DNA of 19,764 nucleotides from positions 1-19,764 of the forward strand of contig JBEKHN010000026.1 in assembly GCA_050012255.1 (NCBI GenBank). The letters run 5' to 3'. Positions 1,346 through 17,641 of the stretch are shown here, piece after piece. A program made the translations under genes and the position numbers. Numbering within the stretch: the first letter of the stretch is position 1; every line of letters starts with the position of its first letter. Below the pieces are notes generated by a model. The model saw only the letters and a list, made by a program, of their open reading frames with translations. It had not been told where the DNA came from and ran no database searches. This DNA is from Candidatus Bathyarchaeia archaeon (GTDB taxonomy: Archaea; Thermoproteota; Bathyarchaeia; Bathyarchaeales; Bathycorpusculaceae).

Positions 1346-1726
1346 GTGTTGAACAGCACTAGTCTTATCTGTGGGACAGCGTTTGAAGAAAATATACTGC
1401 CTGAAGAGCAAATTATCGAGAAACACGTTAAGACTTTTTTGGACATAATAATTTTGGCCATGCTGAACGGCAAAGTCACGTACGGCTACAAAATTATCGC
1501 GGTAATTCACACAGAATTCGGAATTCTACTCAGCCCAGCTTCACTCTACCCTCTTCTCCACTTCTTAGAACAGAATAAACTGGTAGAGTCAATCTTTGAC
1601 CAAGGAAAAACAATGTACCGCTTGACCTCAAAAGGAAAAGACACACTCGAAAGAAAACTCGCCTTGTACAACTTGTCTATCCAAATAATGAGTAACTTCA
1701 TGAAAGTCCACGGAAAAATCTGGTAG
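1346..1726 (+). CDS. PadR-family winged-helix transcriptional regulator (GvpE-like subfamily)
   Basis: LDIIILAML...YGYKII...LLSPASLYPLLHFLEQNKLV...YRLTSKGK is a PadR signature. Visibly similar to the C-terminal domain of 8773..9603. Confidence 0.88.
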   Translation: MLNSTSLICGTAFEENILPEEQIIEKHVKTFLDIIILAMLNGKVTYGYKIIAVIHTEFGILLSPASLYPLLHFLEQNKLVESIFDQGKTMYRLTSKGKDTLERKLALYNLSIQIMSNFMKVHGKIW

Positions 1727-1776: not shown

Positions 1777-2349
1777 TCATGCGACAACAAATTCCCTTAT
1801 TTTTCCTTCAAGCGTTCTTATAAGCGCACCCATTTCTTCGGTGTGAAGCAGCACAAACTCACTATTCGACTGACCATTTTCAAGTGAAAGCAGAAGAGTT
1901 TCCCCTTTCTCCTTCAGATACTCCTTTTTGTCAATGGATAAACTTTTTATTCGGTCTAGAGTTGTTTCAAACAAAATCTCAGCGGGTTTTTTCCGGAACA
2001 AGAAGAGCCTTTTATTTGTGACATAAAGATACCCGGGTCTCCAGACGCCGGGAAGAGACGAATCACGATAATAATGTGAACCAAAGGTCTTGAAGATGAT
2101 TTTTTCGTTCTCACTTAATGGGGCTTCTTCCCAGCTGTCTGCGAGGACGGATTTTCTGATTTTTTCGTCCCACGCTTCCATCATGCCGTAATCCACCATG
2201 GTTGTTATGCCGGCGATTGCAGCTTTCAAGTTAACACCAATCAAAGGCACGCCAGAAACTGAGATGATGAGATCTGCGTGGAGAATTACGCCTTTGGCTA
2301 AGATTCTGTCAACAAGGTCTACGAGTGCACCATCTCTTGAAGGTTCCAA
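1777..2349 (-). CDS. gvpM: Gas vesicle protein GvpM (GvpA/J/M family) fused to a C-terminal GRAM/PH-like domain
   Basis: N-terminal (M)EPSRDGALVDLVDRILAKGVILHADLIISVSGVPLIGVNLKAAIAGITTMVDYGMMEAWD closely follows haloarchaeal GvpM. C-terminal LSENEKII...PGYLYVTNKRLFLF is GRAM/PH-like. TTG start at 2349, just after the dnaK stop, preferred to 2367. Confidence 0.85.
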   Translation of the reverse strand: MEPSRDGALVDLVDRILAKGVILHADLIISVSGVPLIGVNLKAAIAGITTMVDYGMMEAWDEKIRKSVLADSWEEAPLSENEKIIFKTFGSHYYRDSSLPGVWRPGYLYVTNKRLFLFRKKPAEILFETTLDRIKSLSIDKKEYLKEKGETLLLSLENGQSNSEFVLLHTEEMGALIRTLEGKIREFVVA

Positions 2350-2351
2350 AC

Positions 2352-4277
2352 TTACCCTTCTCCACAATCGGCCTCTAGCAGGATTGCCATCTCTTTCAGT
2401 TTAATTATCTCTGCGTTAACGTGCGAGTACGGCGTGTCTTCCAGCCTTTTGAGTGCTTTCCTAATCTTCCTTTTCTCTTCGCTGGACAATCTATCACCTA
2501 GTTTTCGCTCCACTGAAGACAGCAAAGCCTCAGCTTGACCCACCTTTTTCAATTTCACTTTCACGCCCGCAATAAGTTCACGCAACTCATCCGTACATTC
2601 TTTGACTCCCTGATGTTTGGAGCTATCCAGTGCTACCTTTAGCCTCGCTGAAGCTTCTTCAAGGGATCTTTTTTCTCGTTCAGAGATTTTTCCACTTGCT
2701 TCTCCTATTAATTTCTGCGTTGCATAGATCACAGCTGCTGCTCGGTTGCGCGTTTCAACAGCCTCTTTCCCCTTTTCATCTGCCTCATCGAACTTGGTTG
2801 CTTCTATAATCATCTTTGTAATTGCTTCCTCTGACAGACTTTTTGTCTCTGCAATATCGATAGCTGCTTTTTGCCCTGTTTCCAAAATCTCGGCTGATAC
2901 AGTTAATATGCCGTTGGTATCTATCTTGAAGGTAACTTCAACTTTTTGCTCGTATTTGGGCGCTTGAGGAATGCTGTCTAACTTGAACAAGCCCACGGAC
3001 ATGTTATCCTTTGCCATCTCCCTCTCACCTTGCAGAACATGGATCATCATCGAAGTCTGGCCGTCTTCTTCGGTTGCAAATATCATGTTTTCCTCAGCGG
3101 GAATGGTAGTATTCCGTTTGATTAACCGAGTGAATAGTCCGCCTGACGTTTCCACGCCTAAGGATAAGGGAGTAACGTCTAGAAGCAGCATGTTTCTTAT
3201 TTCGCCGTTCAGAACACTGGCTTGGACGCTGGCGCCTGTAGCAACTATGCCCATTGGGTCTATGCCAAGTTCAGGTTCCACTTCAAAAAAGCTTCCGAAA
3301 TACTTTCTCACGATGGGTATCCTGGTTGGTCCACCCACCAAGATGAGCTTGTCTATGTCCCGAATGCTACGTTTTGAATCTCTCAGCGCCTGTTCCACCG
3401 GACCTTGCAGCCTGTCAAGCTGGGGTTTGATGAGTGCTTCAAGCTTTTCCCGGGTTAAAGTTAGGTTCGGGTTTAGTTTGTAACCGTCAAAGTCAAACGC
3501 GACGTCTACGGTTGTTAGAAGTTCACTCGAAAGGCGAATCTTTGCCATTTCCCCAGCGTCTCTGAGAATGTTCAAGTTTTTGCGGTCATTTTTCAGGTTA
3601 ACGCCATGTTTTTCCTCAATTTCGTTAACGAGATAATCTAGAATAGCATCGTCCATGTCTTTGCCGCCCAGACGAATGTCTCCGCTGGTGGAAATCACTT
3701 GGAAAACGCTGTTGTTCATCTGCAAAATGGTTACGTCGAAGGTTCCAGCGCCTAAATCCAGCACTGCTATGTTCAGGTTTTTTTCAGTCTTGTCCAGCCC
3801 GTAGGCTAATGAAGCCGCTGTGGGTTCGCTGACGATTCTTAAGACTTCAAGACCTGCTAACTCACCCGCCTCTTTTGTGGCGTTTCTCTGGTTATTGTTG
3901 AAGTAGGCTGGCGCTGAAATTACTGCTTTGTCTATCTTTTCGCCCAGGTACGTTTCCGCGTCCTTTTTCATCTTCTTAATTATCAGAGCAGATATCTCTT
4001 GAGGCGTGTATGCGTAGCCGTCTATTTTCACTGTATAATCTGTTCCCATTTTTCTTTTGATCCATCTTATCGTTCTCTCTGGATGAGTGTAAGCGTAGTT
4101 CTTTGCGTTCTTGCCTACGATTATTTCGCCGTCTTCTTTGAATGCAACTATGGACGGGAACATTTTTCCGTAAGATGTTGATCCTTCAGAAGCTGGAACA
4201 AGCCTTATTTTTCCATCCTTCATCAAAGCGGCAGCCGAGTTGGATGTTCCAAGATCAATTCCTATAGTTCGACTCAT
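2352..4277 (-). CDS. dnaK: Hsp70/DnaK-family chaperone (divergent paralog embedded in the gvp operon)
   Basis: GIDLGTSNS, PAYFN, EPTAA, DLGAGTFD, LGGKDMD, LVGGPTRIP, LLLDVTPLSLG linker, VLQGER; 641 aa. Confidence 0.95.
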   Translation of the reverse strand: MSRTIGIDLGTSNSAAALMKDGKIRLVPASEGSTSYGKMFPSIVAFKEDGEIIVGKNAKNYAYTHPERTIRWIKRKMGTDYTVKIDGYAYTPQEISALIIKKMKKDAETYLGEKIDKAVISAPAYFNNNQRNATKEAGELAGLEVLRIVSEPTAASLAYGLDKTEKNLNIAVLDLGAGTFDVTILQMNNSVFQVISTSGDIRLGGKDMDDAILDYLVNEIEEKHGVNLKNDRKNLNILRDAGEMAKIRLSSELLTTVDVAFDFDGYKLNPNLTLTREKLEALIKPQLDRLQGPVEQALRDSKRSIRDIDKLILVGGPTRIPIVRKYFGSFFEVEPELGIDPMGIVATGASVQASVLNGEIRNMLLLDVTPLSLGVETSGGLFTRLIKRNTTIPAEENMIFATEEDGQTSMMIHVLQGEREMAKDNMSVGLFKLDSIPQAPKYEQKVEVTFKIDTNGILTVSAEILETGQKAAIDIAETKSLSEEAITKMIIEATKFDEADEKGKEAVETRNRAAAVIYATQKLIGEASGKISEREKRSLEEASARLKVALDSSKHQGVKECTDELRELIAGVKVKLKKVGQAEALLSSVERKLGDRLSSEEKRKIRKALKRLEDTPYSHVNAEIIKLKEMAILLEADCGEG

Positions 4278-4301
4278 GGCAATCCCCGATTGATGGCTGT
4301 C

Positions 4302-5282
4302 CTATCGGTCTTTTTCCTCTACCAGGATGGTTTCTTCGACTTCTGTTTTTCGAAGAGAGCAGAGATAATGTTCGCAGTACTTTATCAACAGGTCGTACGC
4401 GTTTTTTATTCTCTTAAACTTCTCCTCTGCGGTAAGGTCATCGGGGTTAATGTCAGGATGGTACAGGCACACAAGACGATTATAAGCGGAGTTGATTTCT
4501 GAAATGCTTACCTCACAGCTCAGCCCCAAAGTTTTTCTTGCATCTTCCACAGCGTTAAAATCTATTCTTTTCACGCCCAGCCTAGTGAAATCGTATGGTG
4601 GCAAAGGACCGACAGCGAGAAACTTCAGTTTACGCGCGTATTTTTTCTCCAACTCATCTAGTTTACCGTAGAATTCATGTTCTCGGTTTTTTTCAACAAG
4701 AAAAGCGGCGTTCAATAGTGTGTCTTGATCAGGTATCTTGTTTTCTTCCGAATCGCATGAGAGACTTTTTAGCAAACTGTTTATTTCGGTTATGTATTCG
4801 TTTTTCTTTTCGTCTAATGCTGATTTAACTTTTCTTCCCAGCTCAATCCTGAGGGATTGGTCAGCATTTTCCTTCGCTTTGAGGGTTAATTTACGTATTT
4901 CGACGTTTTCATTCAAGATACTTGCGAGAACGTCTTTATCCCACGAGATCTTGACATTAATCTGAAGTTTATTTTCAATTTTTTCCAAGGTCTTCTTGAG
5001 TTTCATTCGAGCCCGTTTTAGAATGTTTCTTATTTCTTCTTCGTCTTTTGCAACTATGCCGAAGCTCATGGGAATTACTGCGCGAGGCTGCATGATTTTC
5101 CGCAATGCTTCATCGTGAATTTTGACTTCTTCCATTCCGATCTTGCAGTTTTCGAAAACGTCGCTTACGACTGCACCGACGTCCTCAAACTGAACACTGT
5201 ATATTTCGCCGTTGCCTACCCCAATGTTGCCGAAGCTTTTTTTGTTCTCCGAGTTTATGATGCCATAAAGGTATTTTCCCAT
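4302..5282 (-). CDS. GvpF/GvpL-family gas vesicle protein fused to a C-terminal J-domain (HPD)
   Basis: GKYLYGII, VIPMSFG, LLNAAFLV, GPLPPYDF mark the GvpF/L domain. It is followed by ARKTLGL...EINSAYNRLVCLYHPDINP...AEEKFKRIKNAYDLL, a J-domain with HPD at 4452-4460. ATG at 5282 has an AGGTGA RBS overlapping the upstream stop, so it is preferred to 5318. Confidence 0.92.
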   Translation of the reverse strand: MGKYLYGIINSENKKSFGNIGVGNGEIYSVQFEDVGAVVSDVFENCKIGMEEVKIHDEALRKIMQPRAVIPMSFGIVAKDEEEIRNILKRARMKLKKTLEKIENKLQINVKISWDKDVLASILNENVEIRKLTLKAKENADQSLRIELGRKVKSALDEKKNEYITEINSLLKSLSCDSEENKIPDQDTLLNAAFLVEKNREHEFYGKLDELEKKYARKLKFLAVGPLPPYDFTRLGVKRIDFNAVEDARKTLGLSCEVSISEINSAYNRLVCLYHPDINPDDLTAEEKFKRIKNAYDLLIKYCEHYLCSLRKTEVEETILVEEKDR

Positions 5283-5289
5283 TTTGTTT

Positions 5290-6099
5290 TCACCTGCTTC
5301 CCTCGATTTTTGACTCATTTATCTGCCCAACAAAAGAGTATGGAGGCCAAGGACCCGTGAACCTAACTGCAAAACCTTCATTCTTGAGTGCGCCTAGCAT
5401 GTTTCCCAAGTTTTCAACCTTGTCTTTGTGCGCAAGGCAGGCTACGTTTAGAATCATTTGTTTGCCTTTCCATTTTTCAGGAACTTCCTTACTTGTTGAA
5501 CCAATCTTTACGTCGTTAACAAGCTTCTCGATTTGGGTGTACAGATCCTTCGCATATTTATCTATGGCAAGCTGTTTTTCGAGTTGTCTTCCGTGTTCTA
5601 ACTTTTTCTTAAGTAGGTAAGATGCTCCGCTGCTTGTTGTTTCCAACTTCTTTTTGAGGTCCTGAAATTCTTGGCTGTTGTCCAGGAGTCGGTCGACAAA
5701 ATCGTTTTCGAGGAAAATTTGAACGCCATATTCGGCTTTGCCTTCAAGTCTTGTTGACAAATCTTTAAGTTGCTGGTACTCTTCACTGAGCCATTTCTTG
5801 AGACTTTCATTATCTCCCTTGAGAATTGTGTCAAAGGTTAGAGGGATCACTGTTCCGAATTCTTCTGTAGCCAAGTCAACTACGTATTGATGCGCCAAAA
5901 GCCATTTTCCCGCTTTTTCCTTGGTTGCCGTTTCATAGGGCTTCGCCTCGCAACGGTGAACCACTGCGCCTATATCGTTGAATGCAACAATGTAGACTGA
6001 GCTGTCTTCGACTCCTATTTTTCCAAAGTCTTTTTCGTTTCCGCTACTGACTATGCAGTAGAGGTATCTTCCCTCTTCAGAATTGTTTTCCAGAGACAT
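5290..6099 (-). CDS. gvpL: Gas vesicle protein GvpL (GvpF/L family)
   Basis: EGRYLYCIV, WLLAHQYVVD, FGTVIPLTFDTIL, VRFTGPWPPYSF. Lies directly after gvpK, as in haloarchaea. Confidence 0.9.
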   Translation of the reverse strand: MSLENNSEEGRYLYCIVSSGNEKDFGKIGVEDSSVYIVAFNDIGAVVHRCEAKPYETATKEKAGKWLLAHQYVVDLATEEFGTVIPLTFDTILKGDNESLKKWLSEEYQQLKDLSTRLEGKAEYGVQIFLENDFVDRLLDNSQEFQDLKKKLETTSSGASYLLKKKLEHGRQLEKQLAIDKYAKDLYTQIEKLVNDVKIGSTSKEVPEKWKGKQMILNVACLAHKDKVENLGNMLGALKNEGFAVRFTGPWPPYSFVGQINESKIEGSR

Positions 6100-6415
6100 C
6101 TTGATTCACCTTTTCTTGTTTCCATCTTTCTGGGTTAGCCATTACATCGATGGTTTCTTCGACCAACTTGTCAAGGTCAGAGCGTATAGATTTGACAATT
6201 TTTTCGATGCCGTTCTCCACTTTGATGTGTTCAAGTGCGGCCTCAAGTTCCATTAGCCCCTGCCCTAACCTTTCAATTTCGTTCTCGTTCAATCTGCCTG
6301 ATTCCATTCTTCGTATTGCTTCTCTTTCAAGAACGTCTTGTATGACCTCTACTAACGCGACAATTACGCCTAGAAGACCAGATTTTAAGTTGTCTTCATC
6401 AATTTGTACCGGCAT
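6077..6415 (-). CDS. gvpK: Gas vesicle protein GvpK
   Basis: GLLGVIVALVEVIQDVLEREAIRRMESGRLNENEIERLGQGLMELE is the GvpK signature. Confidence 0.93.
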   Translation of the reverse strand: MPVQIDEDNLKSGLLGVIVALVEVIQDVLEREAIRRMESGRLNENEIERLGQGLMELEAALEHIKVENGIEKIVKSIRSDLDKLVEETIDVMANPERWKQEKVNQDVSGKQF

Positions 6416-6421
6416 GCTTCA

Positions 6422-6940
6422 TTAGCCCACCTTGCTAAGTTTAATTTCCAGAACGCCGTTGTTTAGAGTTACATCAGCCTTCTTTTCAACATTACAGAAG
6501 AGAGGCACTTCTTTGTAGTACTCTTTCCCAGATATTACCAGAAGAGAGCCGTTTACTTTGACTTCGGCGTTTTTTTCTTGAGGAGGCAGAGCCACTACGA
6601 TTCTTAGAATGCCTTTTTCATCCATAACGTCCACGAAGTCATCGTGTGCGCTGTCCGTCAATTCTTCGTTTATCCACCAGTTGAAAACAATTTTTTCGCC
6701 AGTCAAAGGATCGATTTTGCTTTGTTCAAACTTGATAGCAGGTTTTCCTGTGATTTCTTGGGCTTTTGGGTTTATGATTTCTCTGATTCTCATTAGCACT
6801 TCCATGTCAGAAGAAGCGCAAATCAGATCTGTTAGCTCTTTGATTCTGGCATGTCTTTCTCTTGCGAGATAGGTTACGATTTGCTTGCTCTTCTCATCTA
6901 CTCCCTTGACGAGTGTTTCAACCTTTTCCAATGCGCTCAA
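6422..6940 (-). CDS. Putative HTH domain plus Hsp20/alpha-crystallin-like (GvpH-like) protein
   Basis: C-terminal VDVMDEKGILRIVVALP...YYKEVPL...LNNGVLEIKLSK is Hsp20-like. N-terminal SKQIVTYLARERHARIKELTDLI looks like a winged HTH. TTG at 6940 has a GGAGGT RBS and overlaps the gvpJ stop (TTGA). Confidence 0.75.
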   Translation of the reverse strand: MSALEKVETLVKGVDEKSKQIVTYLARERHARIKELTDLICASSDMEVLMRIREIINPKAQEITGKPAIKFEQSKIDPLTGEKIVFNWWINEELTDSAHDDFVDVMDEKGILRIVVALPPQEKNAEVKVNGSLLVISGKEYYKEVPLFCNVEKKADVTLNNGVLEIKLSKVG

Positions 6941-7323
6941 CTGCGAACCTCCACTTTCACTCCAATTTTTGGAGTGTTTTTCTTCTTGGCTTTTGCACTT
7001 TCCCAACCACACCACGGGCAGGCAGAATCCAGCAGTTCTTCTCTGTCAACTTGTTTGCCACATTGAGGGCAATCCTCTTTGTCTATCATGGCGTTTTTCC
7101 AAGCCGTTGTTTCCAAGTTGGTTCCAGACGGAAACTCAAGCCCGTATTTTGCGGCTGTCTCAAAAGAAGCAAGGGCAGCTCGTATTTTTATTCCAAGTAA
7201 CTCTACTCCCGCAACGCTGATGGCGATGTCAGCATTAATCACTAAACCTTTGTCCAAGATTCTATCTATGGCATCCGCCAAGCCAGAAGATTCTTTTTCA
7301 GGGTTTAACGTTCTGTTTTCCAT
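6937..7323 (-). CDS. gvpJ: Gas vesicle protein GvpJ with a C-terminal CxxC...CxxC zinc ribbon
   Basis: LADAIDRILDKGLVINADIAISVAGVELLGIKIRAALASFETAAKYGLEFPSGT is GvpJ, followed by CPQCG...CPWCG. ATG at 7323 has an AGGTGA RBS. Confidence 0.92.
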   Translation of the reverse strand: MENRTLNPEKESSGLADAIDRILDKGLVINADIAISVAGVELLGIKIRAALASFETAAKYGLEFPSGTNLETTAWKNAMIDKEDCPQCGKQVDREELLDSACPWCGWESAKAKKKNTPKIGVKVEVRS

Positions 7324-7327
7324 AGTT

Positions 7328-7654
7328 TCACCTTTCACTCTGTCTATAACTGAATCCACACCAAGGGCAGCCTTCGCTGAGCTCCGTGTAAGTGGATTCC
7401 ATGCCGCAAGCCGGACATGACCGCTTCGTTACTAAATCTCGCCACGATTGCGTGTTGAGGTTGGTGTTTTCAGGAAAAATCAAGCCTATTTTTTGAGCCG
7501 TTTCGAAAGATGCCAGGGTAATACGCGCTTTTGCTCCCAGAAGTTCGATGCCGCTAAGGTTAACTTTGGTGTTCGCATCAATTGTGACTCCCTTGTCAAG
7601 AATTATGTCTAAGAGTCTGCTTAAGCCCGCTTCTTCCGGTTTCAACGTCACCAT
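7328..7654 (-). CDS. gvpJ: Second, more divergent GvpJ paralog with a C-terminal zinc ribbon
   Basis: LSRLLDIILDKGVTID...IELLGAKARITLASFETAQKIGLIFP, then CPACG...CPWCG. GGAGGT RBS. Confidence 0.85.
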   Translation of the reverse strand: MVTLKPEEAGLSRLLDIILDKGVTIDANTKVNLSGIELLGAKARITLASFETAQKIGLIFPENTNLNTQSWRDLVTKRSCPACGMESTYTELSEGCPWCGFSYRQSER

Positions 7655-7800
7655 CTGCGTGACCTCCTTGGATTTTGGTCAACACTTTGTTGTGTCACTG
7701 TATCTACAAGATAAAGTTCAATCAAAGCACTGAAAGGCTCATCGCTTTGCTGGTTTGCTAGATATTCCGTTTTTTTGTGTTTGTTGCTCAAATCTTGCAC
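7648..7800 (-). CDS. Small hypothetical protein (50 aa) between gvpG and gvpJ
   Basis: Hand translation from GTG: MQDLSNKHKKTEYLANQQSDEPFSALIELYLVDTVTQQSVDQNPRRSRRW*. Fills the gvpG-gvpJ gap and overlaps the gvpJ start. No recognisable family; weak RBS. Confidence 0.4.
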   Translation of the reverse strand: MQDLSNKHKKTEYLANQQSDEPFSALIELYLVDTVTQQSVDQNPRRSRRW

Positions 7801-7811
7801 TACCTTCTAAC

Positions 7812-8099
7812 CTAGCTTAGAATGTTTATCCTCTGATCGAGGTTGACTCTGCTCACTCGCTTATTCATCAGGCGCTGGTGGTTCAGCCTGCTGTTTCGTT
7901 TGGCGTATTCTTCTTTCGTTATTTCGCCCAGCTCAAAGAGCAGTCGGGTCTCTCTAATTTCATTGATAATTCTTTGCTGAATTTCCTTCACTCTTGAGTC
8001 ATCAACGTAATCTGTGATTGTTTCCATAAGCCAGATCATGTCAAACGGTGGTATGGATAAGCCAAACATTCGCAGGAAAATGTCGTCTATGAAAAACAT
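7812..8099 (-). CDS. gvpG: Gas vesicle protein GvpG
   Basis: MFFIDDIF...EIRETRLLFELGEITKEEY resembles haloarchaeal GvpG. Follows gvpF; AGGTGA RBS before ATG 8099. Confidence 0.88.
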   Translation of the reverse strand: MFFIDDIFLRMFGLSIPPFDMIWLMETITDYVDDSRVKEIQQRIINEIRETRLLFELGEITKEEYAKRNSRLNHQRLMNKRVSRVNLDQRINILS

Positions 8100-8108
8100 T
8101 TGTTTCAC

Positions 8109-8762
8109 CTATTTTTTTGTAATCTCCACGCCGTCTGCTCCGATTTTTATGTAAACAAAGTTGTGGGGTGCCCAGGGTCCACTGTACAAGATTCTGATCG
8201 CAGGATACTTGTTTTGCATTCTTGAGACTTCATCGGAAAAGGTGTCCACGCGTTCCTTGTTGACTAGGAACGACGCGTTTAGAATCAGTCGGTCACTGAA
8301 TAGGTCGCCAATAACGACCTGTTTAGCCGCAGTCTTCAGTGATCCTATGATGTCTGAGGCGCAGTCTTTCCTTTTTTGCGCATCAGTAAACACGGTGTTC
8401 TCGGTTATCACGGCTTTTACTCCGAGCTCAACCATGTTGTCTAATAGCTTCAGGCAATCTTTTACAGGATCATACGCTTTTTTGAGTAAACGTTTCAGAA
8501 GTATCTCGTTCATTATTGTTGTTCCAAACTCTGCAGGCACAACCGCGTATTCTCCCATCACTTGCCGTATCACGTCTTCGTGCTTTGTTGTGTTCTCTTC
8601 AGTTAGCTCGTAGTCTTTCATGGGAGAATCGCTGACTACGGCGGCAACATCCAAATAGGGAATTGCGTAAACTTCGCTGTTATCCATGCCTATTCTGCCG
8701 AAGCTCTTTTCTTCACCGCAAAGTGTCGCGCAGTAGAGATATTTCCCATTTTCTTTTTCCAT
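8109..8762 (-). CDS. gvpF: Gas vesicle protein GvpF
   Basis: GKYLYC, AAVVSD, HEDVIRQVM, VVPAEFG, VELGVK, LFSDRLILNASFLV, YSGPWAPHNFVYIKIG. Start at ATG 8762 or TTG 8768. Confidence 0.92.
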   Translation of the reverse strand: MEKENGKYLYCATLCGEEKSFGRIGMDNSEVYAIPYLDVAAVVSDSPMKDYELTEENTTKHEDVIRQVMGEYAVVPAEFGTTIMNEILLKRLLKKAYDPVKDCLKLLDNMVELGVKAVITENTVFTDAQKRKDCASDIIGSLKTAAKQVVIGDLFSDRLILNASFLVNKERVDTFSDEVSRMQNKYPAIRILYSGPWAPHNFVYIKIGADGVEITKK

Positions 8763-8772
8763 GATCAAACCT

Positions 8773-9603
8773 CTAAATTTTAGTTTCCTGCTGCAAGTAA
8801 TGATTCAGAAGTTGGTGAGCTTGAATGTGCGAGTTGACCAAGTTTCTTATTTTTGGTTTGGCTTCTTCAACTGGACCGTAGACTATTTCCTTGCCAGACT
8901 TCTTAACCGTCAGTATTCCTTTCTGTTTTAACGAGTGAAGCAGCGGGTATATGGTTCCAGGGCTCAGCAGAACGTTGAATTTCAAGTGTATAGTTCCTAT
9001 TATGTCGAGTCCGCACATCGTCTCCTTTTGCAGGATAGCGAGGATGATGTTTTCCAGATTGTCCTTCACCATTTTTTCGATGGAGTCACCTGAAACTTTA
9101 GATTCATCAAACAAGTCTCCAGAGAGTATTGTCAGATCACTGGTTGTAAGGCGAAGTTGATTGTGGTAGCCTGCCAATTGCTTGATTTTTTCAAAGCTAA
9201 GTTTGGCAACGTCATAGGTGCAGAGGCAATCTATGTTCCGCCCTTTGCAAAATGCGTTCAGAAAATTCTCCCTTTCTTCAATTTCAGCGCTTTTCTGGTT
9301 GACCATGGATCCTGCGTCTACGATGAGCTGCATTTCACGGGTTTCTTCTTTTTTGAGTTCTTTGAGTCCTTCGGGCGGGATAATTCTTAGCTTAACATTC
9401 GCTGGGTTGAACTCACGCATCAGAGCTGCTTGGTCGCTGGTGGTTACATACACTATTTGCTTTTCGTTTTGGGTGGGAATTAGAAATGCTCTCTGGATGG
9501 GGTATTTGTCGACCTTAGGTGTGTAAAGGTGAAGGGTGTGGTTTAGGCATTTGACTTCTCTATTTGGAGATATTTGAATGCCGAAGGCGGACGTTGTATC
9601 CAT
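8773..9603 (-). CDS. Transcriptional regulator: putative MEDS-like N-terminal domain plus GvpE-like/PadR winged helix
   Basis: C-terminal LENIILAIL...CGLDII...LLSPGTIYPLLHSLKQKGIL...VY resembles GvpE/PadR. N-terminal HTLHLY...LIVDAG...CLCTYD is the MEDS-like pattern. Occupies the gvpE position, just upstream of gvpF. Confidence 0.8.
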   Translation of the reverse strand: MDTTSAFGIQISPNREVKCLNHTLHLYTPKVDKYPIQRAFLIPTQNEKQIVYVTTSDQAALMREFNPANVKLRIIPPEGLKELKKEETREMQLIVDAGSMVNQKSAEIEERENFLNAFCKGRNIDCLCTYDVAKLSFEKIKQLAGYHNQLRLTTSDLTILSGDLFDESKVSGDSIEKMVKDNLENIILAILQKETMCGLDIIGTIHLKFNVLLSPGTIYPLLHSLKQKGILTVKKSGKEIVYGPVEEAKPKIRNLVNSHIQAHQLLNHYLQQETKI

Positions 9604-9631
9604 CGCTATTTCCCCTTTTAGTCGCTGGCTG

Positions 9632-9919
9632 TTATACTTCTGCCGTTTCGTCTGGCGTTATCATGTCGCAGCGTCTTCTAGTCATCTTCTGCGTCCAGCC
9701 GATTAGTTCGCCATCCTTAGTGAGTCTGATCTGGTATCTTCCTAGAATGTCTTGAGTGTCAGGTACTGCCTTTCTCTCCAGAACTTCAACTGTAACTCTC
9801 CATTCGCCATTTTTTTCCGTGACATCTACAATGGTCTCGGGAGTCTTGGAAATGTACTTCTTCGCTATGGCAAGCGCGTTTTCAGTAACTTTGTATATTG
9901 AAGCCTTCTGCGTTTCCAT
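9632..9919 (-). CDS. gvpO: Gas vesicle protein GvpO
   Basis: WRVTVEVLERKAVPDTQDILGRYQIRL...G is the GvpO signature. Follows gvpN. Confidence 0.93.
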   Translation of the reverse strand: METQKASIYKVTENALAIAKKYISKTPETIVDVTEKNGEWRVTVEVLERKAVPDTQDILGRYQIRLTKDGELIGWTQKMTRRRCDMITPDETAEV

Positions 9920-9921
9920 TT

Positions 9922-11022
9922 CTATTCCTCCGGTTTCTGGTAGGCATAGGTGTTGCAGACGTTGATGGCTGGGATTGTTGCGCCAGTTTTCCCGATTTGA
10001 ACTTCAGTGTAGGCTTCGTCAAGTATTTCTTTTATGAGGTCGGTTTTATTGAGGGCCCCCAGGGGGTTGCCTATTTTGGTTGCGAGAACATCCAAGCAGA
10101 TCTGTTCAAAATCTTCGCTTGAGTAGTTGCCTAGAGTCTTCAAACCCTGAGAAATCATTATTTCTGCTCTGGTGCCGGGTTTATGAGGTTCAGGTAGTTT
10201 TTCTCTCATTGTCCTTACGACTGTGACAATTTTTTTCGCTTCAGGAAGTGAGATGCGAGAGTGCGCCTGAACGATTTTTACCTCTGTATCAAAATCGTAA
10301 TAGTCCATGTATATGTCTATCATTCTGTCTAGCAGGGCGTCTTGTGGTTTGTGTACTCCTGCGTATTCTATGGAGTTGCTTGTGAATATCACGTTGAAGT
10401 CAGGATGAACTTTTACGTATCTTTCTTCTCCGAACATTGTTGGAAGTTCGAGTATATGTTCCTCTAGTACCGATAGGAGAACGTTGTTTGCTTCTGGTTT
10501 TGATCTTGAGAACTCGTTGTAAACTAGCGTGTAGCCGTATTTGCATGCGAGGGTTAGTGGATTGTCAACCCACTTGTATTTTGTTCTGTCTTTGGTTAAC
10601 CAGACGTTGTGAATGTATTTGTCTCTCACGCTCTCAGCTTCCATTTCCGAGTACCCGCCGATTAGGTCAGTTGTGGTCATCTGATCGTCGCCGTTTATCC
10701 ATACTGTGGGTCTGCCTAACTCTTTTGCCACCTGCATGGCCAGCGTGGTTTTTCCGCAGCCTGTTGGTCCTACTACGTGAGGAGGGAATCCCGCTCTAAC
10801 CCACAGTCTAACTCTGTCCTTTAGCTTGCTGACTTGTTCTGTTTCGATGAAACTTTCAATTGTGGGTATCAAAAATTCCGTTTCTATGTTGCCGATTGAG
10901 AGTTTTAGCGTTTTCTTTTCTGGGGCTTTCTTTTCCAAGATTAGTTTTGTGTGTCTTTCGTCCGCCGTTTCGTGAACTCTTTTTCCCCGAACAATTCTAT
11001 TATGAATGGGTGCATATTTCAT
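9922..11022 (-). CDS. gvpN: Gas vesicle AAA+ ATPase GvpN
   Basis: HVVGPTGCGKTT (Walker A), WVDNPLTLAC, LVYNEFSRSKPEANNVLL, VHPDF, TSNSIEYAGVH, QDALLDR. Confidence 0.96.
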   Translation of the reverse strand: MKYAPIHNRIVRGKRVHETADERHTKLILEKKAPEKKTLKLSIGNIETEFLIPTIESFIETEQVSKLKDRVRLWVRAGFPPHVVGPTGCGKTTLAMQVAKELGRPTVWINGDDQMTTTDLIGGYSEMEAESVRDKYIHNVWLTKDRTKYKWVDNPLTLACKYGYTLVYNEFSRSKPEANNVLLSVLEEHILELPTMFGEERYVKVHPDFNVIFTSNSIEYAGVHKPQDALLDRMIDIYMDYYDFDTEVKIVQAHSRISLPEAKKIVTVVRTMREKLPEPHKPGTRAEIMISQGLKTLGNYSSEDFEQICLDVLATKIGNPLGALNKTDLIKEILDEAYTEVQIGKTGATIPAINVCNTYAYQKPEE

Positions 11023-11049
11023 ATTTCAAAGTCACCGTTTACCTTTCAT

Positions 11050-11128
11050 CTATAGCAAGAATTACGATGTTACCTTTTAAGCAATATTCAAGATTTCGTT
11101 ACGAAAACTGTATCGAAAATCGAAAACC
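11050..11128 (-). promoter_or_regulatory. Putative gvpN promoter (BRE/TATA block plus upstream TTTTCG repeats)
   Basis: Minus-strand TTGAATATTGCTTAAA (11076-11091) is 15/16 identical to the block upstream of gvpA. TATAG downstream and TTTTCGA upstream occur at the same spacings in both. Confidence 0.7.
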
Positions 11129-11251
11129 ACGCTGTAAGGCATCCTTAGTCTTAGGGTTAGGCAGCAAAAACCAATCATACAGCAATTCCCATTAAGACTG
11201 GGAGGTTTAAAATAAACGGATGACCTGAGAAAGGCACAATCTTCCTTTTTC

Positions 11252-11413
11252 TCAGAGCTTCTCCTTTTCAAGATCGTTCACCCACATCATGCGAACTCTT
11301 TGTGGGCGAGAAACAACAGATAAATACCCTACACTCTCTCTGTATTTTCTCAGCCACTTTATTTTCCTGTCTCTTTCTCTTGCGTTAACAGCGCTTTTCG
11401 GCATCTTAGACAA
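11252..11413 (-). CDS. Small basic protein (53 aa), possible minimal GvpI
   Basis: Below the ORF track cutoff. GGAGGTGA RBS (11420-11427) 6 nt before TTG. MSKMPKSAVNARERDRKIKWLRKYRESVGYLSVVSRPQRVRMMWVNDLEKEKL*; 15 K/R versus 6 D/E. Confidence 0.65.
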   Translation of the reverse strand: MSKMPKSAVNARERDRKIKWLRKYRESVGYLSVVSRPQRVRMMWVNDLEKEKL

Positions 11414-11468
11414 CCATATTCACCTCCTAATCAATCACGCTTGGATCCGACCAGTTCAGTATAAAGTT

Positions 11469-11520
11469 AAAAAAAGGGGATGGGAAAGGGAAAGCAAGTC
11501 GCATTATTATGTTACTGCGA
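11469..11520 (-). terminator. Putative terminator after gvpA-gvpC
   Basis: Minus strand: short inverted repeat TCGCA...TGCGA just after the gvpC stop, then a pyrimidine run CTTTCCCTTTCCCATCCCC ending in T7. Confidence 0.55.
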
Positions 11521-11524
11521 AGAC

Positions 11525-11890
11525 CTATCCGTAGAACTGCTTCGTGTATTCTTGGTGTTCGCTTATCTGCTTCTCGATGCTCGTTCGCATGGCCGCGATG
11601 CCTAGCATCATCTCAGCAACGCCGGATTGGAAAGCGGCGGCACCTGCCTTGTACTTGTTAACTTGATCTTTGATGCCTAGCTGAATTTCCTGGATGCCTG
11701 CTTGCATTTCGCGGAGACCTTCTTGTAGGGTGTTGATGCCTGACTCCCGCATTTCGTTGGCGGCTGATTGGAAGTTGGCGGCGGTCTGCTGGTATAGAGC
11801 CCTTTTGCCGTTGACTGTGTTTGATTTTGCGCTTTCGCTTGTTGGCTTAGCTGCTGTCCCTGTTTTCTTTTTCATTTTTTGTTTTGACAT
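11525..11890 (-). CDS. gvpC: Short GvpC-like helical-repeat protein
   Basis: Directly downstream of gvpA. Amphipathic helical repeats (AANFQSAANEM / AAAFQSGVAEM). VNGKR and the terminal QFYG recall the start and last repeat of haloarchaeal GvpC. Confidence 0.65.
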   Translation of the reverse strand: MSKQKMKKKTGTAAKPTSESAKSNTVNGKRALYQQTAANFQSAANEMRESGINTLQEGLREMQAGIQEIQLGIKDQVNKYKAGAAAFQSGVAEMMLGIAAMRTSIEKQISEHQEYTKQFYG

Positions 11891-11924
11891 TTCTGTTCAT
11901 CCCGAACACTATTTTGCCAGAGAT

Positions 11925-12152
11925 TTAGGCTGCGGGGACAGGAGCAGCTATTGCTGCCTGCTCGACCTTTGTGATTTCTTCTGCGTAGTGGAGGAAAGTA
12001 TCTACTGAGGCAACTACCACTCTAGCTTCAATGGTGAGGATTTCGATACCAACCAGAGAAGCTCTTGCCCACGCGTCGACGACTATGCCTTTGTCAAGTA
12101 CTCGATCGAGAACTTCTGCCAAACTGCCTGAATCTGGACTATGTGACACCAT
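11925..12152 (-). CDS. gvpA: Major gas vesicle structural protein GvpA
   Basis: [65 protein letters not shown] before ATG 12152; 75 aa. Confidence 0.98.
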
Positions 12153-12187
12153 ATTTAGTTCACCTCTCAACCTGTTCTTTTGATTTC

Positions 12188-12413: not shown

Positions 12414-13010
12414 TTGGTCTGGTTAATCTGTCAGACAGCTTCCAGAAAGGGAAAAACCAAACTCTTAGTAAGAGGCACCCACGGAGCTGAATGGGTCTTT
12501 TGCCCAAGGGTCAAACGCATAAAAAACGACAAAATCAGCGTACACGGCTGTCAAAGATGCTCGCACTTTATATCCTTAGAACAAACCCGTACGCCGCAAG
12601 CACGAACTGGGAAAGGAAGGCTTCTGCCAAAGCGTACAAGCGTTCTTCATTTCATGAAGCCAGTAAGCAGATGGAAAACCAAATATCCAAGCGTAAACTC
12701 GCTTTCTCAACCGCTAAGTCTGATAAGGGAAAAGCAGCCTCTTATCGACGTCTTTGATGAGAAGAACCACTTCGTAATTTTGGCGCAATTGCCCGGCATT
12801 GATGAAAAAGATGTAAAAATTAAGGCAGACGAAAATAGCGTAACGATAACTGCACAAAACGCGACGAGACAGTTCCTGGAAACGATAAGGCTTCCAACGT
12901 GCATCAAGAAAGACACAATGAGATTCACTTACAGGAACAACATCCTGCAAGCAAGGCTGAAGAAAACAGCTTCATACAGCGTGGTTAAGAGTTTACAGGT
13001 TAATGGCTAG
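12414..13010 (+). CDS. Hsp20/alpha-crystallin family protein with a Cys-containing N-terminal domain
   Basis: C-terminal QPLIDVFDEKNHFVILAQLPGIDEKDVKI...IRLP...YRNNILQARLKK. N-terminal WVFCPR...GCQRCSHF. Start codon uncertain. Confidence 0.82.
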   Translation: MVWLICQTASRKGKTKLLVRGTHGAEWVFCPRVKRIKNDKISVHGCQRCSHFISLEQTRTPQARTGKGRLLPKRTSVLHFMKPVSRWKTKYPSVNSLSQPLSLIREKQPLIDVFDEKNHFVILAQLPGIDEKDVKIKADENSVTITAQNATRQFLETIRLPTCIKKDTMRFTYRNNILQARLKKTASYSVVKSLQVNG

Positions 13011-13751: not shown

Positions 13752-15937
<2,186 letters not shown>

Positions 15938-15941
<4 letters not shown>

Positions 15942-16900: not shown

Positions 16901-17641
16901 ATGGCGAAAAAAGGAAAAGCGGAAAAAACTTCTGAAGGAAAAGGTCTTGAACAGCTGAAGGAAGAGATTGCGCAAAAAGGAAAAGAAATCGAACAGCTGC
17001 AGAAGTCAGTGGAGGAGATGAGGACGCAGATCAAGGGAAAAGAGAAAACCGGCGAAACAGCAGAGTTGGGCAGAATGGTCGACGATGTCTCAGGACTTTT
17101 AAACGTGGGTTTCAGTATACTTGGTGCACCAGAAAAGGCGCAAAACGAGAAATCTAAGGGATTAGTTGGGTTAGTCAACGAGCTGGGCAAGTTAGCGGAG
17201 AAGTCTCAGACGACACAGAAGACGATTAACTTCGGAAAAGGCGGAGTAATCGACTTTCGGGTAAGTTCCCATCCGATAAAAGGAACCCCTTCGACACATC
17301 ATGCGAGTACGCTGAAGATCAGCAGACCAAACAGAGAGTCACCAAAAATACATGCGCCCTTACCTTCAACAGCAGGAACAATAAACGAAAGACAGCCAAT
17401 CGTTGATGTGTTTGAAGAGGAAGACTACGTTAGAGTGACTGCTGAACTGCCTGGCGTTGAAGAGAGTGAAATAAACCTGAAAGTAGAAGACACTACTCTG
17501 ACCATAAGCACGGGTACGTCTGCAAGGACATACTACAAAGAGGCAGAGCTGCCAACTCCTGTCAAAAAAGAGGTCGCTGAATCCAGTTACCGCAATGGTA
17601 TTCTAGAAGTTAAACTGGTGAAGACGAAGAAAGACGCATAG
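16901..17641 (+). CDS. Hsp20/alpha-crystallin family protein (GvpH-like) with an N-terminal coiled coil
   Basis: RQPIVDVFEEEDYVRVTAELPGVEESEI...YYKEAELP...YRNGILEVKL. N-terminal heptads LEQLKEEIAQKGKEIEQLQKSVEEMR. GGAGGTGA RBS. Confidence 0.9.
   Translation: MAKKGKAEKTSEGKGLEQLKEEIAQKGKEIEQLQKSVEEMRTQIKGKEKTGETAELGRMVDDVSGLLNVGFSILGAPEKAQNEKSKGLVGLVNELGKLAEKSQTTQKTINFGKGGVIDFRVSSHPIKGTPSTHHASTLKISRPNRESPKIHAPLPSTAGTINERQPIVDVFEEEDYVRVTAELPGVEESEINLKVEDTTLTISTGTSARTYYKEAELPTPVKKEVAESSYRNGILEVKLVKTKKDA

Follow-up and report, generated by a model that had tools for sequence, protein, structure and literature searches.

A gas vesicle (gvp) gene cluster from Bathyarchaeia encodes, side by side on the minus strand, a protein in which a GvpF/L fold is fused to a J-domain and an Hsp70 that belongs to a clade apart from the housekeeping DnaK. 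The two proteins probably work together as an Hsp70 system of two parts that is reserved for making gas vesicles, in which the fusion serves as the co-chaperone. The positions of the genes and of their parts in the window, which is the whole stretch of 19,764 nucleotides analysed, are listed in Table 1.

Table 1. Features of the gvp cluster that bear on the fusion and the adjacent Hsp70
Feature	Position	Strand	Basis
GvpF/L-J-domain fusion, class C-like J-domain protein, 326 aa	4302..5282	(-)	Pfam, AlphaFold2 model, Foldseek, homologues
GvpF/L-fold domain, the part of the fusion presumed to bind the client	4584..5279	(-)	Pfam residues 14-245 of the 338-aa ORF; Foldseek
J-domain of the fusion	4383..4535	(-)	Pfam DnaJ residues 262-312; PF00226 match C26:4383-4535
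HPD motif of the fusion	4452..4460	(-)	Computed coordinates, alignments
C-terminal tail of the fusion after the J-domain (YCEHYLCS...VEET...)	4305..4379	(-)	Conservation; ends in a predicted beta-strand
gvp-linked Hsp70, 641 aa, divergent DnaK paralogue	2352..4277	(-)	Pfam, NCBIfam, PDB match, trees
Interdomain linker of the Hsp70, MLLLDVTPL	3165..3191	(-)	Alignment to DnaK
Substrate-binding loops of the Hsp70 with S378 and E403 (M404 and A429, respectively, in E. coli)	3069..3146	(-)	Alignment
GvpM-like protein with C-terminal PH-like extension, candidate client	1777..2367	(-)	Pfam Gas_vesicle; NCBIfam
GvpL	5290..6099	(-)	Pfam GvpL_GvpF 1.1e-61; stop 7 nt before the fusion start
Remaining gvp cluster	6077..12170	(-)	Pfam and NCBIfam; gene order same in related loci

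The open reading frames were called on the minus strand at 4302-5318 (338 aa, fusion), 2352-4277 (641 aa, Hsp70), 1777-2367 (196 aa, GvpM-like) and 5290-6099 (269 aa, GvpL). The first-pass annotation placed a full-length Hsp70 gene next to the fusion gene and adjoining gvpM. This arrangement is confirmed, with the Hsp70 gene starting 24 nt downstream of the fusion stop and its own stop overlapping the TTG start of the gvpM-like gene. The GvpM-like protein matches Pfam Gas_vesicle (3.2e-13), with a sub-threshold match to bPH_3 (3.1e-4) and a match under the cut-off to NCBIfam halo_gas_GvpM (4.8e-26). The remaining genes of the cluster encode GvpK, an Hsp20-like protein (6422-7015; NCBIfam Hsp20 4.9e-10, under the cut-off), two GvpJ-like proteins, GvpG, GvpF, a MEDS-PadR regulator, GvpO, GvpN, a 121-aa protein and GvpA, and two HSP20 genes, a CDC48 ATPase gene and a PadR gene lie beside it. 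The contig, from a genome with 5.04% contamination, is rejected as a binning contaminant, because the same cluster is present on Bathyarchaeia contigs of 0.4-2.0 Mb. One related locus, L038, carries a Micrarchaeota title, yet its cluster is of the Bathyarchaeia type. Contigs from metatranscriptome libraries of three studies match the Hsp70 and the fusion at 90-99% identity, which is weak evidence because such libraries can contain DNA.

The 338-aa frame of the fusion contains a GvpL_GvpF domain (E = 6.7e-52; 177.4 bits against PF06386, cut-off 23.6) and a DnaJ domain (E = 3.3e-13, above the cut-off), in agreement with its initial description as a third GvpF/L paralogue with a complete C-terminal J-domain. 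Translation may start at an ATG at 5282, as first annotated, to give 326 aa, or at an upstream ATG at 5318, to give 338 aa; the former is favoured because most homologues are 322-332 aa long (two are of 338 aa and one is of 344 aa). Both domains are present in all of the best 120 homologues. The AlphaFold2 model (pLDDT 96.3, pTM 0.88) is matched by Foldseek to the GvpF structure 6l5d_B (E = 1.3e-15) and to 4qsg (E = 1.3e-14), with target-normalised TM scores of 0.75-0.80 to both crystal structures. The J-domain matches 5nro_B (48% identity; rmsd 1.0 A across 52 columns), and its HPD motif, located between helices II and III, is invariant in 12/12 Bathyarchaeia fusions. Residues Y302, C303, E304, Y306, L307, C308 and S309 of the tail are likewise invariant in the Bathyarchaeia alignment, residues 319-323 of the model are a strand by DSSP, and a similar 'YC....SF' tail is found in distant fusions. 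The gene is located inside the gvp cluster, with genes for GvpL, GvpK, the GvpM-like protein, GvpA, GvpN and GvpO as neighbours. Thus, the fusion is a J-domain protein by its fold of helices I-IV and its HPD motif, and would be expected to activate ATP hydrolysis by an Hsp70; it is a member of the GvpL/GvpF family by its profile and fold, and would be expected to bind a GvpA-family protein. Prediction of a complex between its GvpF/L domain (residues 1-250) and GvpA, run without controls (score 0.22; mark 0.32), counts neither for nor against this binding. As the cluster also encodes plain GvpF and GvpL, the role of the fusion may be an accessory one and not essential.

The 641-aa protein is a complete Hsp70 (Pfam HSP70, 1.6e-177), for which the best PDB match is Geobacillus DnaK (2v7y, 8.5e-153). 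It scores 659.7 against the DnaK equivalog NF001413, narrowly above the cut-off of 648, but 657 against TIGR02350, below the cut-off of 822.55, whereas the housekeeping DnaK of the same genome exceeds both cut-offs (857.5 and 852.7, respectively). Its identification as HscA is ruled out by its score of 493.7 against TIGR01991 (cut-off 708.55) and by the absence of isc genes from the window. The catalytic and allosteric residues (D8, K70, E171, D194, T199, D201, R167, P143, R151, Q378 and P419) are conserved in 17/17 rows of the gvp clade, and so is the linker LLLDVTPL, with L391, D393 and the positions around them. In contrast, the substrate arch is altered. Position 404 is serine in 16 rows and threonine in one, against leucine in 15 and methionine in three of the housekeeping rows, and position 429 is glutamate in 15 rows and glutamine in two, against alanine in all 18 housekeeping rows. 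According to the available part of the review PMC8215388, from which the roles of the arch, cleft-bridge and J-contact residues are taken, prokaryotic DnaKs have a conserved hydrophobic arch with M or L at 404 and A at 429. This alteration may be read as a sign of changed client specificity.

Two further surfaces differ from those of the housekeeping protein. Arginine at position 56, which forms the R56-E264 salt bridge of the nucleotide cleft, is present in 1/17 gvp-clade rows and in 18/18 housekeeping rows; K55, of the bridge K55-E267, is kept in 12/17 gvp-clade rows, and both residues are lost in the Hsp70s of a distant gvp family. The acidic residues that contact the J-domain are also replaced: E206 is glutamine in 15 of the 17 rows, position 217 is never acidic, and D477 is replaced by lysine (14 rows), glutamine (two) or arginine (one). 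On the side of the Bathyarchaeia fusions, R22 of J-domain helix II is asparagine in 10/12 and K26 is never basic. J-domain position 26 is aspartate only together with lysine at Hsp70 position 217 (5/5), a pairing that carries no weight as covariation because it is confounded by kinship within the clade. K48 of the J-domain is kept, though its DnaK partner D477 has become lysine, and this combination of residues is not accounted for by a model of simple charge swapping. That the pair may be independent of GrpE and insulated is suggested by the analogy of these few residues to those of DnaK and HscA in E. coli.

The Hsp70 gene directly follows the fusion gene in all 23 Bathyarchaeia-type gvp loci, including those of the distant family, in which the fusion is 34-36% and the Hsp70 50-53% identical. 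This adjacency is far beyond chance, because the same gene pair recurs in 23/23 related loci. Among 401 genomes of the class sampled, the seven with a GvpA-family gene are the same seven that have the fusion. In one locus (L032), the Hsp70 is split over two reading frames. In a tree of Hsp70 sequences, the 18 gvp-linked rows group as a single clade (SH-aLRT 100, stem 1.14), separate from that of the 18 housekeeping rows (SH-aLRT 97, stem 0.23). When the distant family is included, 16 gvp-linked and 10 housekeeping rows again separate (SH-aLRT 100 for both). The trees are quick searches with SH-aLRT support, have DnaK and HscA of E. coli as their sole outgroups, and do not fix the origin of the clade; one reduced tree omits 10 of the 18 housekeeping rows and the partial rows L032, L039, L042 and L122, and the tree with the distant family also omits L033, L036, L041, L044, L104 and L128. 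The first-pass annotation asked whether the linkage to gvp genes is conserved elsewhere and whether the linked Hsp70s form a clade apart from housekeeping DnaK; the answer is yes in both cases.

Outside Bathyarchaeia, the fusion is more common than the pair. An aligned HPD is present in 130 of 149 distant cluster representatives (131/150 rows of the wide alignment, by column count), and Pfam finds both domains in eight of nine distant representatives searched; the ninth, P0127, has HTD in place of HPD and gives no DnaJ match. One such fusion, WP_015497776.1 (GvpL_GvpF and DnaJ), is encoded inside the gvp cluster of plasmid pOA238_160 of Octadecabacter arcticus 238, and no Hsp70 is found among the 29 annotated features of that cluster. 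Among fusion loci from outside Bathyarchaeia that are flanked on both sides by at least 4 kb, an Hsp70 gene is present in 5/22 and absent from 17/22; roughly, and without computation, 1-2% of random windows of 16-20 kb would be expected to contain one. An Hsp70 of its own is therefore not a general requirement of the J-fusion, because these 17 loci and the Octadecabacter cluster have none nearby. In helix II of the distant fusions, K or R is present at the R22 position in 40/50 and at the K26 position in 30/50, which fits the use of an ordinary host DnaK. The taxa represented are Pseudomonadota and Chloroflexota (Atlas labels, few records) and Octadecabacter, with a Methanocellales MAG as one name among 20 representatives. 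Databases label these proteins by one domain or the other, as 'GvpL/GvpF family' or 'DnaJ-domain-containing protein 1'. Thus, co-occurrence of the fusion with an adjacent Hsp70 holds for the Bathyarchaeia-type loci but not for most others. No publication found describes the Bathyarchaeia pair; the J-fusion is much more widespread than was supposed.

The first-pass proposal that the GvpF/L domain targets Hsp70 to gas vesicle proteins is supported by the separate housekeeping operon (see below), the conserved linkage, the separate clade and the intact J-domain with its HPD motif. Beyond the observed architecture, conservation, separate clade and residue patterns, we infer binding, activation of ATP hydrolysis in the Hsp70 by the fusion, a gas vesicle protein as the client, and the GrpE independence and insulation of the pair. 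GvpJ and GvpM are minor paralogues of GvpA thought to work early in vesicle formation. The GvpF/L domain of the fusion would bind a hydrophobic GvpA-family protein, either GvpA or one of these paralogues, while the conserved tail would hold the J-domain in a fixed position. The J-domain, through its HPD motif, would then trigger ATP hydrolysis in the adjacent Hsp70, which would clamp the client, so that aggregation-prone shell proteins would stay soluble and be passed to the growing vesicle. The Hsp70 would be specialised for this task by its altered arch, by a loosened nucleotide cleft, with which GrpE may not be needed, and by altered charges on the J-binding surface, through which the pair may be insulated from housekeeping DnaK and DnaJ. 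The J-fusion itself is old and occurs widely, with host DnaK probably used in most bacteria; in Bathyarchaeia, where many relatives are without any Hsp70, the cluster brings its own. It can be proposed only tentatively that vesicle assembly is driven by Hsp70 in many lineages, with GvpF/L proteins as adaptors and the J-fusion as the explicit link, and that the Bathyarchaeia pair is orthogonal, GrpE-independent and co-evolved through its recharged interface, making the cluster self-sufficient and transferable to hosts without Hsp70.

Both the choice of client (GvpA or GvpJ/GvpM) and the direction of the reaction (assembly or disassembly) are matters of inference. Hsp70 systems are known to dissolve aggregates and to strip coats, as in the uncoating of clathrin by Hsc70 and auxilin, and the pair might similarly disassemble collapsed or surplus vesicles, or clear misassembled GvpA aggregates, to recycle shell protein. 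The rigid coupling of the GvpF fold and the J-domain in the model would suit docking on an assembled lattice as well as on a monomer, and the Hsp20-like gene of the cluster, with the two HSP20 genes and the CDC48 ATPase gene beside it, is consistent with such a role. However, no ClpB-type disaggregase is seen in the cluster by Pfam, and the available part of PMC11445434 places the binding of GvpF early, possibly during translation. Disassembly is hence an unlikely, though not negligible, role of the pair, which the present data do not separate from assembly.

Assembly by a dedicated pair is also to be weighed against a general role, in which the Hsp70 is a chaperone on a mobile gvp island that supplies Hsp70-poor hosts, has no specific vesicle client and is only boosted locally by the J-fusion. 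Hsp70 is indeed patchy, with no PF00012 match in 15 of 31 genomes (the source genome and 30 relatives), as is the gvp cluster (7/401 genomes). G032 (91% complete) and G044 carry the pair, and the one Hsp70 found in each is the gvp-linked copy; neither GrpE nor a housekeeping DnaK is found in them, an absence that the incompleteness of these genomes may explain. The gvp-linked copy is not, however, the only or the housekeeping Hsp70 of the source genome, which would have spoken against a dedicated role: the grpE-dnaK-dnaJ operon, with the genome's only GrpE match and full dnaJ, is on a separate contig (C10). In the window, a Pfam profile search finds neither grpE nor a canonical dnaJ, as first annotated. 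A second gvp cluster of the same genome (contig C7) has its own fusion and its own Hsp70. The gvp copy is kept despite the presence of grpE-dnaK-dnaJ in G000, G041, G042, G043, G045, G198 and G261, the J-domain of its partner is joined to the fold of a gas vesicle protein instead of a general client-binding domain, and its arch departs from the conservation of prokaryotic DnaKs in the available part of PMC8215388. A general role is therefore very improbable. Least probable of all is a regulatory role, in which the pair would tune vesicle production by controlling how active or how stable a cluster regulator, such as the MEDS-PadR protein, or GvpN/GvpO is, much as DnaK acts on sigma-32: the MEDS-PadR gene inside the cluster and the PadR gene beside it are both conserved in related loci, but the targeting domain has the GvpF fold, whose documented partners are GvpA-family proteins (PMC11445434, available part), and no link between GvpF/L and a regulator was found in this analysis.

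The proposed dedicated pair resembles HscA/HscB, the pair specialised for IscU, in three respects: the genes for an Hsp70 paralogue and for a J-protein of its own are neighbours within the operon whose process they serve (E. coli isc locus inspected), the J-protein has a client-binding domain in place of the zinc-finger and C-terminal domains of DnaJ, and both Hsp70s have an arch that differs from that of DnaK and have lost cleft salt bridges. In the available part of PMC8215388, HscA is described as having an arch unlike that of DnaK and as being independent of GrpE through the loss of these bridges. The gvp Hsp70 differs from HscA in its place in the trees, among DnaK-type proteins and apart from E. 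coli HscA, and in its arch residues (S/E, M/F in HscA); the client module has a GvpF/L fold, and the process served is the formation of a protein-shelled organelle. With the DnaK-DnaJ-GrpE system, the gvp pair shares the full Hsp70 architecture, the catalytic and allosteric residues, HPD, R167 and Q378. It differs from that system in falling below the TIGR02350 cut-off, in having no adjoining grpE or class A dnaJ, in its arch, cleft bridge and J-contact charges, and in a charged, helical C-terminus where DnaK has a low-complexity tail. The fusion has the fold and Pfam family of GvpF and GvpL (4QSG, 6L5D) and is encoded beside plain copies of both, but adds a J-domain and a conserved tail at the C-terminus. 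Its architecture is the same as that of the Octadecabacter-type fusions, whose cluster differs in having no Hsp70 and whose distant relatives mostly keep the basic residues of helix II.

The function of the accessory Gvp proteins is a long-standing question. In the available part of PMC11445434, GvpF is the primary partner of the shell protein, for which a chaperone-like role is suggested, its function is left unexplained by two crystal structures, and DnaK and Hsp do not occur. No report of an Hsp70 or J-domain in a gvp cluster was found in the literature searched, though gene-map figures, supplements and subscription journals could still show such genes, and a search for 'Bathyarchaeota' with 'gas vesicle' gave no paper on gas vesicles in this class. 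The natural joining of a J-domain to the GvpF/L fold, conserved in at least 130 distant sequence clusters, says that this fold delivers something to Hsp70, which is testable. According to the available part of PMC12848028, gas vesicle clusters serve as acoustic reporters, but many fail to assemble in E. coli, where their expression causes proteotoxic stress; a matching chaperone pair is an obvious component for heterologous gas vesicle expression. Some uncultured Bathyarchaeia probably make gas vesicles, and the presence of a chaperone pair in the cluster itself suggests that Hsp70 helps to build them. An Hsp70/J pair that is dedicated to GvpA-family proteins, and possibly insulated, would join the HscA/HscB kind of process-specific pairs, here for a protein-shelled organelle.

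The gas vesicle (gvp) cluster of the window, which is an entire contig (C26) of a genome of 2.35 Mb in 38 contigs, lies on the minus strand, and its genes are identified with Pfam. The first-pass annotation described a third GvpF/L paralog carrying a J-domain with an HPD motif (hereafter the fusion), an adjacent Hsp70 and a gvpM gene next to it. This description is correct in every detail that can be checked against Pfam and the coordinates. A gap of 24 nt separates the fusion stop from the ATG of the Hsp70 gene, whose stop in turn overlaps the gvpM-like gene at its TTG start; the GvpL stop is 7 nt ahead of the fusion ATG at 5282. This ATG is the likely start, because the homologues are mostly 322-332 aa long.

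Features of the gas vesicle region of the window and metatranscriptome contigs (sources X1-X3) that match the fusion-Hsp70 region
Feature	Position	Strand	Evidence or remark
PadR gene, divergent, just past the gvpM-like gene	1346-1726	+	
GvpM-like protein	1777-2367	-	
Hsp70	2352-4277	-	Pfam, PF00012 1.6e-177
Fusion	4302-5318 (likely start 5282)	-	Pfam, GvpL_GvpF E 6.7e-52 and DnaJ E 3.3e-13
HPD motif of the fusion	4452-4460	-	
GvpL	5290-6099	-	Pfam
GvpK	within gvp cluster	-	Pfam
Hsp20-like protein, 197 aa, inside cluster, GvpH-like position	6422-7015	-	NCBIfam Hsp20 4.9e-10, below its cut-off
Two GvpJ-like proteins	7328-7654 and 6937-7359	-	Pfam
GvpG	within gvp cluster	-	Pfam
GvpF	8109-8768	-	Pfam
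MEDS-PadR regulator, inside cluster	8773-9603	-	Pfam
GvpO	within gvp cluster	-	Pfam
GvpN	9922-11022	-	Pfam
121-aa protein, Ala/Gln-rich, probably helical, between gvpA and gvpN	11525-11890	-	no real family match
GvpA	11925-12170	-	Pfam
Two HSP20-domain proteins, beside cluster	12414-13010 and 16901-17641	+	
CDC48-type AAA ATPase, beside cluster	13752-15941	+	
X1 contig	2933-3272		2 differences in 340
X2 contig	3207-4128		
X3 contig	4094-4370		3 differences
X2 contig	4854-5896		

The gvp neighbourhood is rich in chaperone genes, with the Hsp20-like gene inside the cluster and those for two HSP20-domain proteins and the CDC48-type ATPase alongside. The 121-aa protein is kept in related loci and may be a GvpC-like outer protein. 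Each GvpJ-like protein is extended at its C-terminus by a segment bearing paired CxxC motifs (CPACG...CPWCG and CPQCG...CPWCG); these segments look like zinc ribbons, and we know of no description of zinc ribbons on GvpJ or GvpM. The GvpM-like protein has a C-terminal extension of ~120 aa, likewise kept in related loci, with a sub-threshold match to the bacterial PH domain bPH_3 (E 3.1e-4, 21.6 bits, cut-off 23). The MEDS-PadR and divergent PadR genes both recur in most of the related loci mapped by tblastn. Metatranscriptome contigs assembled from the libraries of three studies map to the Hsp70 gene and span the Hsp70/fusion and fusion/GvpL junctions. This result weakly suggests that the genes of the pair (the fusion and its neighbouring Hsp70) are transcribed, as such libraries may contain DNA and a contig over two genes is not proof of a single transcript.

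The whole genome encodes three Hsp70s and three J-domains. A classical grpE-dnaK-dnaJ operon is located on another contig (C10), and its DnaK passes both NF001413 (857.5, cut-off 648) and TIGR02350 (852.7, cut-off 822.55), whereas the Hsp70 of the window passes NF001413 (659.7) and scores below the TIGR02350 cut-off (657). The possibility that the latter is the only or the housekeeping Hsp70 of the genome, on which the proposal of a dedicated chaperone would have foundered, is thus removed. The third Hsp70 belongs to a second complete gvp cluster (contig C7, L008:2743-13571, order L-M-fusion-Hsp70), in which a separate 331-aa fusion is directly upstream of it. This Hsp70 is 68% identical to that of the window and belongs to a different subclade; therefore the two clusters do not represent a recent duplication, and two old gvp cluster types share one genome.

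The linkage of the fusion to an adjacent Hsp70 is kept beyond the window. A scan with one genome per species gives 15 loci with a fusion, 14 of them filed as Bathyarchaeia or Bathyarchaeota (including MAG BA2) and one as Micrarchaeota, and the tblastn map places an Hsp70 ~30 nt past the fusion in all 15, and likewise in the window, the C7 cluster and one partial locus from a related genome (G032). Two metagenome loci and three genomes from a distant family of Bathyarchaeia have the identical arrangement; in this family the fusions and Hsp70s are 34-36% and 50-53% identical, respectively. The Hsp70 gene thus follows the fusion in 23/23 Bathyarchaeia-type gvp loci, the order being L-fusion-Hsp70-M in 13, L-M-fusion-Hsp70 in seven and L-M-L-fusion-Hsp70 in two, with one partial locus. 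The cluster itself is rare and patchy among the relatives and in the class. G032 alone among 40 relatives has a true fusion, the remaining matches being the J-domain of housekeeping dnaJ, and in an even sample of the class 7 of 401 genomes have a GvpA-family gene, the fusion being present in exactly those seven (three of which, to judge from coordinates and the lengths of their contigs, are loci already in the tblastn map). In L032:11001-12921, from a Bathyarchaeota genome, the gvp Hsp70 is split, with residues 1-216 in one frame and 216-640 in another, as a result of a frameshift or of an error in assembly.

Identity to the Hsp70 of the window is 63-77% for the gvp-linked Hsp70s and 47-51% for housekeeping DnaKs from the same or related genomes. 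A 38-row tree with E. coli HscA as the root and only two outgroups places 18 gvp rows in a single clade (SH-aLRT 100, stem 1.14 changes per site) and 18 housekeeping rows in a separate one (SH-aLRT 97, stem 0.23). The split persists when the distant family is included: the 16 gvp rows in that tree group together (100), as do the 10 housekeeping rows (100), and the family's own housekeeping DnaKs fall among the latter. This result answers the question, raised in the first-pass annotation, of whether the gvp-linked copies form a clade apart from housekeeping DnaK: they do. With two outgroups, the trees are compatible either with birth of this clade by duplication inside Bathyarchaeia or with its import together with the cluster. 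The locus filed as Candidatus Micrarchaeota (L038, JBDRKD010000015.1) has a Bathyarchaeia-type gvp cluster with an Hsp70 nested inside the Bathyarchaeia clade, which points to a binning error or transfer.

The entire fusion is modelled by AlphaFold2 from a 150-row alignment with a pLDDT of 96.3 and a pTM of 0.88. In Foldseek searches its N-terminal 240 residues match GvpF crystal structures (6l5d_B, E 1.3e-15; 4qsg), and its C-terminal part matches J-domains, such as 5nro_B (rmsd 1.0 A). The high pTM and a last beta-strand at residues 319-323, past the invariant YCEHYLCS segment, suggest that the tail would pin the J-domain to the GvpF/L body. In two fusion alignments, residues 302-326 (window 4305-4379), past the J-domain, show a tail YC....SF.. 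followed by a short hydrophobic strand. This motif is kept from Bathyarchaeia to distant, probably bacterial, fusions and appears to be one of the features that define the family.

According to PMC11445434, the primary partner of the shell protein is GvpF, which is transient and chaperone-like in this role; the paper speculates that GvpL binds GvpA2, GvpJ and GvpS likewise, and never mentions DnaK or Hsp. We consider it probable that a private Hsp70/J pair handles GvpA-family proteins: the GvpF/L fold would serve as the targeting module that directs the pair to these proteins, on which the pair would act during vesicle formation. GvpM or GvpJ is a serious alternative as the client, because the Hsp70 gene is recurrently placed beside GvpM-like genes. 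That the pair instead disassembles or recycles vesicles or shell protein is improbable. In its way of working the pair may resemble HscA/HscB, but the gvp Hsp70 is outside the HscA family by score.

The residues of Hsp70 and J-domain (E. coli numbering; roles according to the review PMC8215388) were compared between 17 gvp-clade and 18 housekeeping rows. D8, K70, E171, D194, T199, D201, R167, Q378, P419, P143, R151, D393 and the linker are intact in 17/17 gvp-clade rows. The arch that covers the bound peptide has S16/T1 at M404 in the gvp clade and L15/M3 in housekeeping rows, with E15/Q2 and A18, respectively, at A429, and both V436 and T437 of the nearby pocket are replaced by methionine in gvp Hsp70. 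The substrate pocket is thus probably specialised for a client. That this Hsp70 is a general chaperone hitch-hiking on the gvp island is very unlikely, and a regulatory role of the pair is to be expected least of all. The pair as a client-handling system may also have its own J-interface. The acidic J-contacts E206 (Q in 15/17), E217 (K10/Q4/R2/H1) and D477 (K14/Q2/R1; D in 18/18 housekeeping rows) are changed, and in 12 Bathyarchaeia fusions R22 is N in 10, the K26 position is never basic, and K48 and K51 are retained. Fusions outside Bathyarchaeia have K/R at these helix II positions in 40/50 (R22) and 30/50 (K26). These changes suggest that the interface is remodelled, and possibly private. 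R56, of the nucleotide-cleft salt bridge, is arginine in 1/17 gvp-clade and 18/18 housekeeping rows; HscA, in which this bridge is lacking, releases ADP fast and does not need GrpE (PMC8215388). The cycle of the gvp Hsp70 is therefore possibly GrpE-independent, which is consistent with G032 (91% complete) and another genome (G044), where the pair is present and neither GrpE nor any other Hsp70 is found, although incompleteness could explain this absence. The trends are alike in the distant family, and the C-terminus of gvp Hsp70 is a charged helical segment where DnaK has a low-complexity tail.

Databases already tag the fusion by its domains, and a description of it or of a gvp-linked Hsp70 was not found in the literature searched, mostly main texts of open-access articles. 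A HMMER search returns 7524 proteins at E <= 0.001. Among 149 of 150 representatives of those listed (P0269 was omitted from the alignment), HPD is in its column in 130, the C-terminal part is absent in 14 and the motif is degenerate in five. The Atlas labels of such fusion clusters are mostly bacterial, and one representative's cluster contains a Methanocellales MAG protein. Plasmid pOA238_160 of Octadecabacter arcticus 238 encodes a 360-aa GvpL_GvpF+DnaJ protein inside a gvp cluster, with no Hsp70 among its 29 annotated features. Scanning metagenomes with an alignment from outside Bathyarchaeia gives 80 loci, all with the J-domain covered and two of Bathyarchaeia type. Hsp70 is present in seven of the other 78, and in 5/22 of those flanked by 4 kb or more on each side. 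It immediately precedes the fusion in two (L125, L122), and closes the cluster right after a GvpM-like (two) or GvpJ-like (two) gene in four (L104, L128, L135, L151), whose Hsp70s form a clade of their own (97). The Hsp70 of L138, ~190 nt downstream, groups as the sister of the Bathyarchaeia clade (88-90). Several lineages thus have an Hsp70 tied to fusion-bearing gvp clusters, though only a minority of the loci do: the fusion is widespread and the dedicated Hsp70 is not. The fusion therefore probably relies normally on the DnaK of its host. Hsp70 is patchy in this order: of 31 genomes (that of the window and 30 relatives), 15 have no match, some of these being 98-99% complete. We therefore conclude that the cluster carries its own Hsp70 where supply by the host is uncertain.
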